Source: Escherichia coli
Lineage (GTDB): Bacteria > Pseudomonadota > Gammaproteobacteria > Enterobacterales > Enterobacteriaceae
Direction: 5' to 3' (one strand)
Assembly: GCF_048403405.1 (NCBI RefSeq)
Contig: NZ_CP183129.1
DNA: 64,000 nucleotides
A model generated the notes under the pieces. It did no database searches, was not told the DNA's origin, and saw only the letters and a program-made list of their open reading frames with translations. Shown in pieces: positions 514 to 7,961 of the stretch; position 1 is the first letter of the stretch; the number at the start of each line of letters is the position of its first letter. The position numbers and the translations under genes were made by a program.

Positions 514-2169
514 ATGACTCATCTTCCCCACTGGTGGCAAAACGGCGTTATCTACCAGATTTATCCAAAGAGTTTTCAGGACACCACGGGTAGCGGCACC
601 GGCGATTTACGTGGCGTTATCCAACGCCTGGACTATCTGCATAAACTGGGCGTTGATGCCATCTGGCTAACCCCCTTTTATGTCTCTCCCCAGGTCGATA
701 ACGGTTACGACGTAGCGAATTATACGGCGATTGATCCCACCTATGGCACGCTGGACGATTTTGACGAACTGGTGACGCAGGCAAAATCTCGCGGGATTCG
801 TATCATTCTCGATATGGTGTTTAACCATACCTCTACCCAACATGCCTGGTTTCGCGAGGCGCTGAACAAAGCAAGCCCTTACCGCCAGTTTTATATCTGG
901 CGCGATGGAGAACCAGAAACGCCACCGAACAACTGGCGTTCAAAATTCGGTGGTAGTGCGTGGCACTGGCATGCAGAAAGCGAACAGTACTATTTGCATC
1001 TCTTTGCACCAGAACAGGCGGATCTCAACTGGGAGAATCCAGCGGTACGCGCAGAGCTGAAAAAAGTCTGTGAGTTCTGGGCCGATCGTGGGGTCGACGG
1101 GTTGCGCCTGGATGTGGTGAATCTGATCTCCAAAGATCCGCGTTACCCTGAAGACCAGGATGGCGACGGGCGTCGCTTCTACACCGACGGGCCACGAGCA
1201 CACGAGTTTTTGCACGAGATGAACCGCGATGTGTTTACGCCACGCGGGTTAATGACCGTAGGTGAAATGTCCTCCACCAGCCTTGAGCATTGCCAGCGAT
1301 ACGCGGCTCTGACAGGCAGTGAATTGTCGATGACCTTTAATTTTCATCACCTGAAAGTCGATTATCCCGGTGGTGAAAAATGGACGCTGGCTAAACCTGA
1401 CTTTGTGGCGTTGAAAACATTGTTCCGCCACTGGCAACAAGGAATGCACAACGTGGCATGGAATGCCTTGTTCTGGTGTAACCACGATCAGCCGCGCATT
1501 GTTTCTCGCTTTGGTGATGAAGGTGAATACCGCGTGCCTGCGGCAAAAATGCTGGCGATGGTGCTGCATGGCATGCAGGGAACGCCGTATATCTACCAGG
1601 GCGAAGAGATTGGCATGACCAACCCGCATTTCACGCGCATTACTGACTATCGCGACGTGGAGAGCCTCAATATGTTTGCCGAACAGCGCAACAATGGGCG
1701 TGATGCCGACGAGTTATTGGCAATCCTCGCCAGTAAATCCCGTGACAACAGTCGCACACCCATGCAATGGAGCAACGGCGATAATGCCGGGTTTACGGCT
1801 GGCGAACCGTGGATTGGTCTGGGCGATAACTATCAGGAAATCAACGTAGAAGCCGCGCTGACCGATGAGTCCTCGGTGTTTTACACCTACCAAAAGTTAA
1901 TCGCACTGCGTAAGCAAGAAGCCGTTCTGACATGGGGCGATTACCAGGATCTGCTGCCAAACAGCCCTGTATTGTGGTGCTATCGCCGTGAATGGAAGGG
2001 GCAAACCTTGTTGGTCATTGCCAACCTTAGCCGTGAGATCCAACCCTGGCAACCAGGGCAAATGCGCGGCAACTGGCAGCTTGTGATGCATAACTACGAA
2101 GAAGCCTCACCACAACCCTGCGCCATGACTTTACGGCCTTTTGAGGCTGTCTGGTGGTTACAAAAGTAA
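514..2169 (+). CDS. treC: trehalose-6-phosphate hydrolase
   Basis: 551 aa from ATG 514; GH13 alpha-amylase family sequence (MTHLPHWWQNGVIYQIYPKSF...); the longer ORF from 367 overlaps treB and is rejected. Confidence 0.95.
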   Translation: MTHLPHWWQNGVIYQIYPKSFQDTTGSGTGDLRGVIQRLDYLHKLGVDAIWLTPFYVSPQVDNGYDVANYTAIDPTYGTLDDFDELVTQAKSRGIRIILDMVFNHTSTQHAWFREALNKASPYRQFYIWRDGEPETPPNNWRSKFGGSAWHWHAESEQYYLHLFAPEQADLNWENPAVRAELKKVCEFWADRGVDGLRLDVVNLISKDPRYPEDQDGDGRRFYTDGPRAHEFLHEMNRDVFTPRGLMTVGEMSSTSLEHCQRYAALTGSELSMTFNFHHLKVDYPGGEKWTLAKPDFVALKTLFRHWQQGMHNVAWNALFWCNHDQPRIVSRFGDEGEYRVPAAKMLAMVLHGMQGTPYIYQGEEIGMTNPHFTRITDYRDVESLNMFAEQRNNGRDADELLAILASKSRDNSRTPMQWSNGDNAGFTAGEPWIGLGDNYQEINVEAALTDESSVFYTYQKLIALRKQEAVLTWGDYQDLLPNSPVLWCYRREWKGQTLLVIANLSREIQPWQPGQMRGNWQLVMHNYEEASPQPCAMTLRPFEAVWWLQK

Positions 2170-2181
2170 ATCTTCGCTAAG

Positions 2182-2212
2182 CCCCGGTAATGCCGGTCAT
2201 TCCGGGGTTTTG
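2182..2212 (+). terminator. rho-independent terminator candidate downstream of treC
   Basis: ccccgg (2182-2187) pairs with ccgggg (2202-2207), followed by tttt 2208-2211. Confidence 0.6.
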
Positions 2213-2233
2213 CCTGTCAGCATGTTGTTTTTG

Positions 2234-2249
2234 TTGATTTTATAATCAA
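2234..2249. promoter_or_regulatory. FNR-like inverted repeat in nrdD upstream region (TTGAT-N6-ATCAA)
   Basis: ttgat 2234-2238 and atcaa 2245-2249; spacing is 6 not the canonical 4, so assignment is tentative; nrdDG is known to be FNR-activated. Confidence 0.3.
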
Positions 2250-2354
2250 AAAATTCATTAAAAAATTTACATATCGCTGTAGCGCCCGTCATCCGTACGC
2301 TCTGCTTTTTACTTTGAGCTACATCAAAAAAAGTTCAAACATCCTTGATGCAAA

Positions 2355-2401
2355 GCACTATATATAGACTTTAAAATGCGTCCCAACCCAATATGTTGTA
2401 T
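2355..2401. promoter_or_regulatory. pair of NrdR-box-like sequences upstream of nrdD
   Basis: gcactatatatagact (2355-2370) and accaatatgttgtat (2386-2401), each about 13/16 match to my recollection of the NrdR box consensus, centres 31 bp apart; tataat-like -10 at 2410-2415. Confidence 0.45.
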
Positions 2402-2562
2402 TAATCGACTATAATTGCTACTACAGCTCCCCACGAAAAAGGTGCGGCGTTGTGGATAAGCGGATGGTGATTGCGGAAAGCACCGGAAAACGAAACAAAA
2501 AAACCGGAAAACGCCTTTCCCAATTTCTGTGGATAACCTGTTCTTAAAAATATGGAGCGATC

Positions 2563-4701
2563 ATGACACCGCATGTGATGAAACGAGACGGCTGCAAAGT
2601 GCCGTTTAAATCAGAGCGCATCAAAGAAGCGATTCTGCGTGCAGCTAAAGCAGCGGAAGTCGATGATGCCGATTATTGCGCCACTGTTGCCGCGGTTGTC
2701 AGCGAGCAGATGCAGGGCCGCAACCAGGTGGATATCAATGAGATCCAGACCGCAGTTGAAAACCAGCTGATGTCGGGTCCATACAAACAACTGGCTCGTG
2801 CTTACATCGAGTACCGTCACGATCGCGACATTGAACGTGAAAAACGCGGTCGCCTGAACCAGGAGATCCGTGGTCTGGTCGAGCAGACCAACTCCTCGTT
2901 ACTCAACGAAAACGCCAACAAAGACAGCAAGGTGATTCCAACCCAGCGCGATCTGCTGGCCGGGATCGTGGCTAAACACTATGCACGCCAGCACCTGCTG
3001 CCGCGTGACGTGGTGCAGGCACATGAACGTGGTGATATTCACTATCACGATCTCGATTACTCGCCGTTCTTCCCGATGTTCAACTGCATGTTGATCGACC
3101 TGAAAGGCATGCTGACCCAGGGCTTTAAAATGGGGAACGCCGAGATTGAACCGCCGAAGTCGATCTCTACGGCAACCGCGGTAACTGCGCAGATTATTGC
3201 CCAGGTCGCCAGCCATATTTATGGCGGCACCACCATTAACCGTATCGATGAAGTGCTGGCACCGTTTGTCACCGCCAGCTACAACAAACATCGCAAGACC
3301 GCAGAAGAGTGGAACATCCCGGACGCCGAAGGCTACGCTAACTCTCGTACCATCAAAGAGTGCTACGATGCCTTCCAGTCGCTGGAGTACGAAGTAAACA
3401 CCCTGCACACCGCCAACGGTCAAACGCCGTTTGTGACCTTTGGTTTTGGTCTGGGCACCAGCTGGGAATCGCGCCTGATTCAGGAATCTATCCTGCGTAA
3501 TCGTATCGCAGGCCTCGGTAAAAACCGTAAAACTGCGGTGTTCCCGAAACTGGTGTTTGCGATTCGCGATGGCCTGAACCATAAAAAAGGCGATCCGAAC
3601 TACGACATCAAACAGCTGGCGCTGGAGTGCGCAAGCAAGCGCATGTATCCGGATATCCTGAACTACGATCAGGTAGTGAAAGTCACCGGTTCGTTTAAAA
3701 CCCCGATGGGCTGCCGCAGCTTCCTCGGCGTGTGGGAAAATGAAAACGGCGAGCAGATCCACGATGGTCGTAACAACCTCGGCGTGATCAGCCTGAACCT
3801 GCCGCGTATTGCTCTGGAGGCAAAAGGCGATGAAGCCACCTTCTGGAAGCTGCTGGATGAACGTCTGGTGCTGGCACGTAAGGCGCTGATGACCCGTATC
3901 GCTCGTCTCGAAGGCGTGAAAGCGCGCGTAGCCCCGATCCTCTATATGGAAGGCGCTTGTGGCGTGCGTCTGAATGCTGACGACGACGTTTCTGAAATCT
4001 TCAAAAACGGTCGTGCGTCTATTTCGCTGGGTTACATCGGCATCCACGAAACCATTAACGCGCTGTTCGGCGGCGAGCATGTTTACGACAACGAGCAGCT
4101 GCGCGCGAAAGGTATTGCGATTGTTGAACGTCTGCGTCAGGCAGTGGATCAGTGGAAAGAAGAAACGGGTTATGGCTTCAGTCTCTACAGCACGCCGAGT
4201 GAAAACCTGTGCGACCGCTTCTGCCGTCTCGATACCGCTGAGTTTGGCGTGGTGCCGGGCGTGACCGATAAAGGTTACTACACCAACAGTTTCCACCTTG
4301 ATGTGGAGAAAAAGGTGAACCCGTATGACAAGATCGACTTTGAAGCGCCTTACCCGCCGCTGGCGAACGGTGGTTTCATTTGCTACGGCGAGTATCCAAA
4401 CATTCAGCACAACCTGAAGGCGCTGGAAGATGTCTGGGATTACAGCTATCAGCATGTACCGTATTACGGCACCAATACGCCGATCGATGAGTGCTACGAG
4501 TGTGGCTTTACTGGCGAGTTCGAGTGCACCAGCAAAGGCTTCACTTGCCCGAAATGTGGTAACCATGACGCCTCCCGTGTGTCGGTGACTCGCCGCGTGT
4601 GCGGATATTTAGGTAGCCCGGATGCACGTCCGTTTAACGCCGGTAAGCAGGAAGAAGTTAAGCGCCGCGTTAAACATTTGGGGAATGGGCAGATAGGTTA
4701 A
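2563..4701 (+). CDS. nrdD: anaerobic ribonucleoside-triphosphate reductase
   Basis: 712 aa; ATP-cone N-terminus, C-terminal glycyl-radical and Zn-ribbon Cys motifs (CYECGF...CPKCG). Confidence 0.97.
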   Translation: MTPHVMKRDGCKVPFKSERIKEAILRAAKAAEVDDADYCATVAAVVSEQMQGRNQVDINEIQTAVENQLMSGPYKQLARAYIEYRHDRDIEREKRGRLNQEIRGLVEQTNSSLLNENANKDSKVIPTQRDLLAGIVAKHYARQHLLPRDVVQAHERGDIHYHDLDYSPFFPMFNCMLIDLKGMLTQGFKMGNAEIEPPKSISTATAVTAQIIAQVASHIYGGTTINRIDEVLAPFVTASYNKHRKTAEEWNIPDAEGYANSRTIKECYDAFQSLEYEVNTLHTANGQTPFVTFGFGLGTSWESRLIQESILRNRIAGLGKNRKTAVFPKLVFAIRDGLNHKKGDPNYDIKQLALECASKRMYPDILNYDQVVKVTGSFKTPMGCRSFLGVWENENGEQIHDGRNNLGVISLNLPRIALEAKGDEATFWKLLDERLVLARKALMTRIARLEGVKARVAPILYMEGACGVRLNADDDVSEIFKNGRASISLGYIGIHETINALFGGEHVYDNEQLRAKGIAIVERLRQAVDQWKEETGYGFSLYSTPSENLCDRFCRLDTAEFGVVPGVTDKGYYTNSFHLDVEKKVNPYDKIDFEAPYPPLANGGFICYGEYPNIQHNLKALEDVWDYSYQHVPYYGTNTPIDECYECGFTGEFECTSKGFTCPKCGNHDASRVSVTRRVCGYLGSPDARPFNAGKQEEVKRRVKHLGNGQIG

Positions 4702-4720
4702 TCCTTCCCCCTCACCCTAA

Positions 4721-4742
4721 CCCTCTCCCTCAAGGGAGAGGG
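4721..4742. other. perfect 9-bp stem hairpin in the C-rich nrdD-nrdG spacer
   Basis: ccctctccc (4721-4729), loop tcaa, gggagaggg (4734-4742); no T-run follows. Confidence 0.5.
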
Positions 4743-4885
4743 TACCGTTCCGTGCCCCTTCCTGATTCCCGACATAATGAATTGCCTCTGGCCAGTTGGT
4801 GTCGTCGCAAGGTGGCAAATGCGTAGCATCGGGGGACTTCGCCCGTACGCACCAGAGCAGTCATGGCGTCAATTGAGAATCGAAA

Positions 4886-5350
4886 ATGAACTTTCATCAG
4901 TACTATCCTGTCGACATCGTCAACGGCCCCGGCACTCGCTGCACCCTGTTTGTCTCCGGGTGTGTTCATGAATGCCCCGGTTGCTATAACAAAAGCACAT
5001 GGCGGGTAAATTCCGGTCAGCCATTTACCAAAGCAATGGAAGACCAGATCATTAACGATCTAAATGACACTCGCATCAAACGCCAGGGGATTTCCCTCTC
5101 CGGCGGCGATCCGCTGCATCCGCAAAACGTGCCGGATATTCTGAAACTGGTACAACGAATCCGCGCCGAATGTCCGGGTAAAGACATTTGGGTGTGGACA
5201 GGCTATAAACTCGACGAACTCAACGCTGCGCAAATGCAGGTTGTTGATTTGATTAACGTACTGGTCGACGGCAAATTTGTGCAGGATTTAAAAGACCCTT
5301 CCCTGATCTGGCGCGGCAGCAGCAATCAGGTGGTGCATCATTTGCGATGA
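4886..5350 (+). CDS. nrdG: anaerobic ribonucleotide reductase activating protein (radical SAM)
   Basis: 154 aa; Cys cluster CVHECPGC typical of glycyl-radical activases. Confidence 0.95.
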   Translation: MNFHQYYPVDIVNGPGTRCTLFVSGCVHECPGCYNKSTWRVNSGQPFTKAMEDQIINDLNDTRIKRQGISLSGGDPLHPQNVPDILKLVQRIRAECPGKDIWVWTGYKLDELNAAQMQVVDLINVLVDGKFVQDLKDPSLIWRGSSNQVVHHLR

Positions 5351-5354
5351 TAAG

Positions 5355-5386
5355 TTCCCTGTTACCTGAGTGCAGGCAACAGGGAA
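5355..5386. terminator. hairpin between the convergent nrdG and cybC stop codons
   Basis: ttccctgtt (5355-5363) pairs with aacagggaa (5378-5386); lies exactly between stops at 5348-5350 and 5395-5397; no clear U-tract. Confidence 0.45.
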
Positions 5387-5394
5387 ATAAGGAA

Positions 5395-5784
<390 letters not shown>

Positions 5785-5963
5785 TCACTTCCTTTTTTAT
5801 TTACACTTCATCCTTCACACTGCCTCATCGACGGCTACGCTCATTCGCCCGAGTCACGTACTGCGAGTACGCTCCCCGGCCCTCATTCACTTTCCGTCTC
5901 GATGCAGTGCGAATGATTTTGTGTAATTTTTTAGTTTATAGCGCGGCAGGTCGCGCCAGTTTT

Positions 5964-7316
5964 TTACTGCCCGGCGATTTTCATCTCCGGCAACAGCACA
6001 GAACCACACTGTATATTACTGCGTGTTTCAATATCGTTACCGACGGTGACAATATTGCGCCACATATCTTTTAAATTACCTGCGATGGTGATTTCGCTCA
6101 CCGGATACTGAATTTCGCCATTCTCTACCCAGAAGCCCGCCGCACCACGGGAATAATCACCGGTAATGGCACTCACGCCCTGACCCATCAGCTCCGTCAC
6201 CACCAGCCCGGTGCCCATCTCTTTAAGCATTTGTTCGAAGCTTAGCCCTTGTCCGGCAATCCGCCAGTTGTGAATACCGCCCGCATGTCCGGTGCTTTTC
6301 AGCCCCAGTTTCCGCGCCGAGTAGCTGGTCAGCAGCCACTGAGTCAGGATGCCATCTTTGACGATATCGCGGCGCTCGGTGCGCACACCTTCGCTGTCGA
6401 ATGGCGTAGAGGCCAGCCCTTTCAGCAGATGCGGATGCTCTTCAATGGTCAGCCAGTCCGGCAGAATTTGTTTACCCAGCGAATCCAGCAGGAAGGTAGA
6501 TTTACGGTAAACCGATCCACCCGCTATCGCCCCCACCAGATGCCCAAAAAGCCCGGTTGCCACTTCATTGGCAAAAATCACCGGCGCTTTCATGGTAGAA
6601 AGTTTACGCGGTGACAGGCGCGATAAGGTACGGCGAGCACAGTCGGCCCCAACCCACTCTGGCGTTTGCAGATCGCTCATCGCACGACCAATGGTGTAGG
6701 CGTAATCACGCTCCATATCGCCATTTTCTTCGGCAATTACACAGCTGGAGAGCGAATGACGCGTTGAGCAGTAACCCTGCAACATGCCGTGGCTGTTGCC
6801 AAAAACTTTGACACCGTAGTGGCTGTTAAAGCTGCCACCTTCGGTATTGGTGATGCGTTTATCCGCCTGCAATGCCGCCTGTTCAGCGCGGGCCGCCAGT
6901 TCAATGGCTTCATCCGGGGAAACTTCCGCAGGGTGGAACAAGTCGAGATCCGGTGCGTCAAAAGCCAGCAGCTCTTTGTCTGCCACGCCTGCATACGGAT
7001 CTGGCGAGGTATAACGGGCAATATCTAGCGCCGCCTGTACGGTGCGAGCAATGGCCTGCGGGCTTAAATCGGTAGACGATGCGCTACCTTTGCGGTTCTG
7101 GTGATAAACAGTGATCCCCAGCGCGCCATCGCTATTGAATTCAACATTCTCCACTTCACCATAACGCGTGCTAACGCTAATGCCGGTGGTCTTGCTGACG
7201 GCAACTTCCGCACCGTCCGATTTGCCTGAGGCCAACTCCAGCGCAGTCGAAACTGCTTCTTCCAGAATCTTGCGCTGCGCTTCAACTTGAGAGATTACTT
7301 TCATTGCAAGTGCCAT
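5964..7316 (-). CDS. pmbA: metalloprotease PmbA (TldE)
   Basis: 450 aa; PmbA/TldD family sequence; ATG at 7314-7316. Confidence 0.95.
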
Positions 7317-7409
7317 AATGTAGAGAGTTTCTCTGAAGTCTAACAGAGAACCGTTTTTCAGTGCGCATCTTAACTGGTAACATTAGCCTCTTTTTTTAAG
7401 GAGCCTGAG

Positions 7410-7961
7410 ATGACTAAGCAGCCCGAAGACTGGCTCGACGACGTTCCCGGTGATGACATCGAAGACGAAGACGATGAAATTATCTGGGTCAGTAAAAGTG
7501 AAATTAAACGCGATGCCGAGGAGCTAAAACGCCTTGGCGCGGAAATTGTTGATCTGGGGAAAAACGCGCTGGATAAGATCCCGTTAGATGCGGATCTGCG
7601 CGCGGCTATTGAGCTCGCCCAGCGTATTAAGATGGAAGGTCGCCGCCGCCAGTTGCAGCTCATCGGTAAGATGCTGCGCCAGCGCGACGTAGAGCCTATT
7701 CGTCAGGCGCTGGATAAGCTGAAAAACCGCCACAACCAGCAGGTGGTGTTGTTCCATAAACTGGAAAACCTGCGCGATCGTCTGATCGACCAGGGTGATG
7801 ACGCCATCGCTGAAGTATTGAATCTGTGGCCCGATGCCGATCGTCAGCAACTGCGTACTCTGATCCGTAACGCGAAGAAAGAGAAAGAAGGGAATAAGCC
7901 GCCGAAATCCGCACGCCAGATTTTCCAGTATCTGCGCGAGTTAGCGGAGAATGAAGGGTAA
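7410..7961 (+). CDS. yjgA: ribosome-associated protein YjgA (DUF615)
   Basis: 183 aa; acidic N-terminus; taaggag RBS 7397-7403. Confidence 0.92.

Follow-up and report, generated by a model that had tools for sequence, protein, structure and literature searches.

A dispersed BoxC/PIT/TMECO repeat occupies the nrdD-nrdG spacer in a minority of Escherichia coli genomes

The repeat family known as BoxC, PIT or TMECO has been on record since the 1990s, reportedly through Bergler in 1992 and the Bachellier reviews; further studies followed in 2000 and 2002, reportedly by Hoyne and Maher, and in 2015. The hairpin in the nrdD-nrdG spacer of Escherichia coli considered here is of this already known kind. 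Among palindromic repeats, the REP sequences are the classic intra-operon stabilisers, and their mRNA-stabilising effect has been shown experimentally. In general, stem-loops that lack a U-tract shield 3' ends from PNPase and RNase II and define steady-state 3' ends (Dar and Sorek, 2018). The family, for which the name BoxC is used here after Holder et al. (2015, PMC4666352), has the published consensus 5'-CCCTCNCCC N3-6 GGGNGAGGG N3 GGGNGAGGG-3' (Holder et al., 2015, PMC4666352). The number of BoxC copies is given in the literature as 22-32, and 23 TMECO copies have been counted in K-12 (Holder et al., 2015). The G-rich strand of type A and type B oligonucleotides was found by CD and NMR to form a purine-motif intrastrand triplex (Holder et al., 2015). 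As summarised by Holder et al. (2015), Hoyne and Maher (2002) saw neither promoter nor terminator activity in PIT elements, which left RNA polymerase unaffected and blocked DNA polymerase in vitro only.

The DNA analysed in this study (the window) is a 64-kb stretch of E. coli, in which the anaerobic ribonucleotide reductase genes are separated by a 184-bp spacer. The gene names nrdD and nrdG were adopted from the RefSeq annotation of E. coli strain 7/2, with which a 291-base stretch across the spacer shares 100% identity. A preliminary description of this DNA had reported the spacer at 4702-4885 and, within it, a perfect 9-bp hairpin without a U-tract. The coordinates, a pattern search and RNA folding all bore out the spacer and its hairpin: CCCTCTCCC-TCAA-GGGAGAGGG was found at 4721-4742 with 0 mismatches, and when up to three mismatches were allowed, the pattern still had a single match in the 64-kb window, where shuffled sequences predict 0.01. 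The stem, extended by an extra A-T pair (Table 1), starts 18 nt past the nrdD stop codon. As RNA, the hairpin folds with -20.3 kcal/mol (z = -3.7), and none of 200 shuffles folded equally well. The lack of a U-tract was likewise upheld, as the stem is followed by ACCGTTCCGTG and a terminator scan returned no site within the spacer. Promoter scanning of positions 4300-4700 and of the spacer returned no site either. Folded as a whole, the spacer had a z of -1.4, indicating no significant structure beyond the hairpin. It had been overlooked in the preliminary description that the block CCCTCACCC, the TAA loop and the hairpin constitute one three-block repeat unit.

Table 1. Features of the nrdD-nrdG region, in coordinates of the window
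Feature	Position	Strand	Basis or detail
nrdD CDS (anaerobic ribonucleoside-triphosphate reductase)	2563..4701	+	ORF list; RefSeq annotation, identical stretch in strain 7/2
nrdD stop codon TAA	4699-4701	+	sequence
nrdD-nrdG spacer, 184 bp, minority allele (BoxC plus ERIC remnant)	4702..4885	+	
BoxC/PIT/TMECO core, type A, no mismatch	4709..4742	-	CCCTCTCCC-TTGA-GGGAGAGGG-TTA-GGGTGAGGG
Third, C-rich block CCCTCACCC	4709..4717	+	unpaired in predicted RNA fold; sequence, family block layout
TAA loop, directly after block CCCTCACCC	4718-4720	+	
Hairpin, 10-bp stem ACCCTCTCCC / GGGAGAGGGT including extra A-T pair	4720..4743	+	search, fold
Hairpin loop TCAA	4730-4733	+	
Right flank of longer BoxC unit	4743..4760	+	TACCGTTCCGTGCCCC vs family consensus GACCGATCGnGCGC, partial match only
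ERIC left-arm remnant	4792..4824	+	20-23/33 (61-70%) identical to intact orthologous ERICs
ERIC remnant centre, degenerate, shortened; core palindrome lost	4825..4851	+	~50% identity
ERIC right-arm remnant, nrdG leader	4852..4885	+	comparison with intact ERIC right ends
nrdG CDS (anaerobic reductase activating enzyme)	4886..5350	+	ORF list; RefSeq annotation

When the published consensus was searched for, it was matched exactly at a single site, minus-strand positions 4709-4742; shuffled sequences lead to an expectation of 0. Over its 34 nt, the core does not differ from a type A copy of K-12, TMECO no. 2, which lies between hrpB and mrcB. The Watson-Crick-paired portion of one such BoxC/PIT/TMECO copy makes up the hairpin of the spacer. 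With a 66-nt query spanning the element, E. coli genomes were found to carry a median of 18 BoxC places and a maximum of 33, in keeping with the published copy numbers of 22-32 for BoxC and 23 for the TMECOs of K-12. Copies of the family fetched from the pstA-pstB, nrdA-nrdB, hrpB-mrcB, glnH-glnP, pepA-holC and tusA/zntA spacers were all six intergenic, and together with one further copy fetched from a plasmid they aligned over ~55 nt. In a nine-copy alignment the left flank and the core of the window copy agreed with the family, and the right flank TACCGTTCCGTGCCCC did so only partly. The element shares with BoxC the exact consensus, the three-block layout, the type A loop (TTA), the intergenic position and the multi-copy dispersal. 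It is present in the window as a single unit, whereas inverted A+B pairs occur in the nrdD-nrdG spacers of other species, and its stem is perfect as against one mismatch in 17 of the 23 K-12 copies. The locus is also absent from the 23 copies listed for K-12, since K-12 carries REP there; in the available portions of the supplements of Holder et al. (2015), there is no mention of nrdD or nrdG.

An Rfam scan of positions 2000-7500 with 4227 families and E values up to 10 gave no hit at the gathering threshold on the element. The match of Rfam CRISPR-DR57 to the hairpin (18.5 bits, E = 2.4; threshold, 39 bits) was rejected as chance. For annotation pipelines and readers alike, the motif should be classed as a repeat, as otherwise each copy will be rediscovered as a candidate regulator. 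BoxC places were also detected on plasmids, 65 in all; an earlier report had found no association between BoxC and plasmids (Holder et al., 2015). Plasmid pMTY18781-3 of E. coli, which is 70 kb in size and carries flagellar genes, contains a number of BoxC units, among them an inverted A/B pair, at 1500-1690 in the flgH-flgG spacer.

The part of the spacer that precedes nrdG, 4792-4885, is a decayed ERIC (IRU) element. It was compared with the orthologous spacers of E. whittamii, Citrobacter sedlakii, Salmonella, Phytobacter and Klebsiella spallanzanii, in all five of which an intact ERIC extends to the nrdG start. The segment aligns with both arms of the intact copies and stops, as they do, at the identical base ahead of the nrdG ATG. 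The right arm is identical at 26-31 of 34 positions to those of E. whittamii, Citrobacter, Phytobacter and Klebsiella and at 23 of 34 to that of Salmonella, and in 25 of 80 species loci nrdG is adjoined by the same ERIC right end. Within this arm, a Shine-Dalgarno-like GAGAA (4875-4879) would serve in ribosome binding. The segment differs from an intact ERIC in that the defining central palindrome is gone and the remnant is ~37 nt shorter. Sites for the primers ERIC1R and ERIC2 are poor in the window, the best having 11 and 10 mismatches out of 22 compared with 3-6 in the intact orthologous copies; the two primers, the standard ERIC pair, co-occur in 246 papers. Places matching the ERIC copy of E. 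whittamii are dispersed in E. coli (median, 7 per genome). By blastn, no other copies of the 3' part of the window spacer exist in E. coli, where it is single-copy; its ERIC ancestry is visible solely via the orthologous spacers. BoxC and the ERIC remnant together make up ~146 of the 184 spacer bases, and the stretch 4761-4791 (~30 bases) is unassigned.

Another ERIC-like sequence was noticed in the cybC-pmbA spacer, at 5804-5928 on the minus strand. It gave a weak full-length match to the Rfam family Vibrio RNA AS5 (24.6 bits, E = 0.069; threshold, 96 bits). An ERIC-like palindrome within it, GGGGAGCGTAC...GTACGTGACTCGGG, is mismatched to the ERIC primer sites at 6-9 positions. This element is probably a diverged ERIC copy.

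The distribution of the BoxC allele was analysed in 5426 complete E. coli genomes, of which 408 (~7.5%) carry it; matches in the other sampled genomes were limited to the flanking coding ends. Within E. coli, the hairpin is accordingly not a conserved feature, BoxC being missing from the nrdD-nrdG spacer in 92.5% of the complete genomes. In the three genomes examined at this position, those of K-12, 13P460A and an O157 strain, a REP/BIME was present instead. The REP consensus, e.g., CGnCTTATCnGGCCTAC, had matches in the spacers of all three and no match in the window spacer, and the K-12 spacer contained no TMECO. When the window was aligned from treC to mpl with a genome bearing the common allele, identity was 93-100% per 100-bp bin except in bins 4701-4900, where the alignment collapses. 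The allele replacement is thus confined to the spacer and ends at both coding sequences; a wider recombination tract was rejected owing to the 95-100% identity of the flanking coding sequence between the alleles. The BoxC allele is 90-100% identical among the 408 carriers and so did not arrive very recently.

REP/BIME, as found for example in malE-malF, resembles the window element in being a palindromic extragenic intra-operon repeat that yields a stable U-less RNA hairpin, and it holds the exact nrdD-nrdG position in the majority allele, although it has no sequence relationship to BoxC. As the flanking genes are the same, the BoxC and REP forms provide matched natural alleles for probing the role of BoxC in RNA. 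Such clean turnover of repeats in the spacer makes a convenient natural experiment and is in itself unsurprising.

Two further differences near the spacer were recorded. Residue 3 of NrdG (window 4892-4894), which is Phe in the window but Tyr in K-12, is found in either state across the Enterobacteriaceae, with no link to spacer type. In strain 7/2, cybC and nrdG are separated by a RelB/DinJ-RelE type II toxin-antitoxin pair (3843-4365 of that locus), whose toxin gene ends at the base adjoining the nrdG stop codon. A link between this module and the BoxC allele was rejected, as the module is missing from the window and also from the common allele.

To place the junction in a wider context, nrdD-nrdG spacers were recovered from 72 species representatives of the Enterobacteriaceae. 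The strict TMECO motif was present in 25 of them, the three-block BoxC pattern in 27 and a BoxC-type hairpin in 31. In all 27 species with the three-block pattern, the copy nearest nrdD starts 1-31 nt past the stop codon and has its C-rich strand as the coding strand; a second, inverted copy was present in 14 of the 27. The remaining spacers, as far as classified or inspected, contained REP or ERIC, including the REP type of Citrobacter/Lelliottia. Salmonella spacers contained ERIC alone; TMECO is absent from Salmonella (Holder et al., 2015). No palindromic repeat was found in the Hafnia spacer; a different strong hairpin is present there. Within the 110 nt next to the nrdD stop codon, the best 50-nt hairpin reached -19 kcal/mol or stronger in 62 of the 72 spacers; the 10 weaker ones were all of the ERIC type, and the two that were folded whole formed a long hairpin. 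Even the shortest spacer, of 56 nt, consists essentially of one REP hairpin. Some palindromic repeat nearly always occupies the nrdD-nrdG junction across the family, and shared ancestry could explain much of this.

In Pseudenterobacter timonensis and Silvania confinis, tandem arrays of partial BoxC units were observed inside an outer inverted BoxC pair, in spacers of 328 and 323 bp, respectively. The array of S. confinis comprises about five copies of a ~61-nt unit, GGGAGAGGGAACCGAACGAGCACATTGTT..., and the unit in P. timonensis is ~35-40 nt long.

It is likely that the element of the window represents the insertion of a BoxC repeat into a dimorphic, permissive spacer, with a passive, generic effect at most. 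Beginning 7 nt after the nrdD stop codon and followed by a decayed ERIC that runs to the nrdG start codon, the BoxC copy would be a retained insertion, at a site where palindromic repeats are tolerated or to which they are attracted, and not a dedicated regulator of nrdDG. The 10-bp hairpin of the transcript has no U-tract, so that RNA polymerase would read through it and transcription would continue into nrdG. In the manner of REP, the hairpin would halt 3'-to-5' exonucleases and give rise to nrdD-only decay intermediates that are longer-lived relative to nrdG. By this analogy BoxC probably shares the passive behaviour of REP towards exonucleases and may thereby favour nrdD over nrdG. The preliminary description had regarded the hairpin as a possible stability or processing element that sets the NrdD:NrdG ratio. 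A stable, U-less hairpin inside the nrdDG operon stands, but it is a dispersed BoxC copy and not specific to the locus. Since the copy is dispersed and is absent from this spacer in most E. coli genomes, and since the published tests, the K-12 Term-seq tables and the predicted accessibility of the nrdG start lend no support, a role in the NrdD:NrdG ratio is possible only as a generic, passive effect.

The hairpin shares with intrinsic terminators a GC-rich stem-loop 3' of a stop codon. It differs from them in the lack of a U-tract, and nrdG has no promoter-like site in the spacer; PIT elements were also inactive as terminators in the published tests, as relayed by Holder et al. (2015). In the K-12 Term-seq tables of Adams et al. 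(2021), no 3' end is listed under nrdA or pstA, both of which have BoxC-bearing spacers; this speaks against a strong barrier effect of BoxC. The nrdG start region has a predicted unpaired probability of 0.49 in the BoxC allele versus 0.56 and 0.49 in two REP alleles, and in view of this similar accessibility the idea that the alleles act differently on the ribosome-binding site of nrdG was rejected.

The occurrence of BoxC in one orientation in 27 of the 72 species, together with repeats in all classified spacers except that of Hafnia, could signify selection and not mere tolerance. A U-less stem-loop past nrdD would then be kept as a decay barrier that holds NrdD, the stoichiometric enzyme, far above NrdG, the catalytic activase, with BoxC, REP and ERIC as interchangeable suppliers. 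We regard this as possible but less likely than not. It would account for the finding of a palindromic repeat in every classified or inspected spacer of the 72 species save Hafnia, with its other strong hairpin, and for the manner in which three unrelated repeat families swap and the spacer is never simply lost. It would also suit the catalytic nature of NrdG, which according to a review dissociates after NrdD activation, and the general role known for U-less hairpins (Dar and Sorek, 2018). However, common ancestry could retain repeats at the site without selection, earlier work found no functional bias of BoxC/PIT (Holder et al., 2015), and the predicted accessibility of the nrdG start is alike in the BoxC and REP alleles. 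The fuller claim, that the junction is selected for a U-less barrier drawn from any of BoxC, REP or ERIC and that the BoxC/REP dimorphism is a natural allele swap, seems unlikely to us. If true, BoxC, without an assigned function since the 1990s, could gain a testable role at the RNA level in differential decay that places NrdD above NrdG; in a bolder version, the C-rich block may add a triple-helical cap to the mRNA hairpin. The dimorphism could also originate in the DNA, the three-block motif forming a single-stranded hairpin or intrastrand triplex that causes local rearrangement, with RNA being irrelevant. The window copy has the same three blocks as the triplex-forming oligonucleotides of type A/B, and this explanation, which we find rather doubtful, draws on the triplex formed by the G-rich strand in vitro and on a comparison of 56 E. 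coli strains in which TMECO loci were far more variable locally than intergenic control sites (Holder et al., 2015). The clean spacer replacement between conserved genes in E. coli and the tandem partial-BoxC expansions in P. timonensis and S. confinis point the same way. Nevertheless, a stable triplex was unsupported by in vivo DMS footprinting (Holder et al., 2015), causality may be reversed, with repeats inserting where variation is tolerated, and instability of this sort is compatible with repeat insertion.

Other readings invoke Rho, the ribosome or a higher-order structure, and all of them are weaker than that of a passive barrier. Untranslated C-rich RNA might load Rho and bring about partial termination before or within nrdG, the hairpin then marking the trimmed 3' end. 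By their excess of C over G, positions 4702-4800 rank within the highest 1.2% of the window, and a U-less hairpin followed by C-over-G enrichment fits the picture drawn by Dar and Sorek (2018). However, the C excess is mostly the BoxC arm, half of which is paired; 3' of the hairpin the C/G ratio is just 1.58, within the top 12% of windows, and this small skew makes the idea weak. The single nrdD entry in the K-12 Rho-region table is moreover intragenic, near the 5' end and not in the spacer (REP allele, aerobic growth), and we consider Rho-dependent attenuation very unlikely. A hairpin close to the stop codon might instead down-regulate nrdD through translation, by stalling the terminating ribosome and so causing mRNA cleavage and tmRNA tagging. 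REP sequences within ~15 nt of a stop codon are said to have this effect, in work attributed to Liang, Rudd and Deutscher in 2015. The BoxC element does begin 7 nt past the stop codon, but the stem begins at 18 nt, beyond the reported range, and the distance is not conserved, the stems of other species starting ~13-43 nt past the stop; such stalling is highly improbable here. Very little credence can be given, finally, to an RNA triple helix in which the C-rich block binds the hairpin in the pyrimidine motif, or to a protein-binding site. The mRNA carries the C-rich strand, its geometry permits C+.G-C triples (class III), and the pyrimidine motif does occur in RNA (Holder et al., 2015); the copies nearest nrdD also have the same orientation in 27 of 27 species. 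Protonated cytosines, however, need an acidic pH, which is unusual inside a bacterial cell (Holder et al., 2015), and one A.A mismatch interrupts the nine triples. In nrdA-nrdB and glnH-glnP, the G-rich strand is transcribed, so that no strand rule holds for the family as a whole, and no binding protein is known.

Within the coding sequence of nrdD itself, ~260 nt from the start, a Rho-dependent region of high significance is recorded for aerobic K-12 in the Rho table of Adams et al. (2021). It lies at K-12 coordinate 4462398, which corresponds to ~2825 of the window, and may reflect control of the operon by premature termination.
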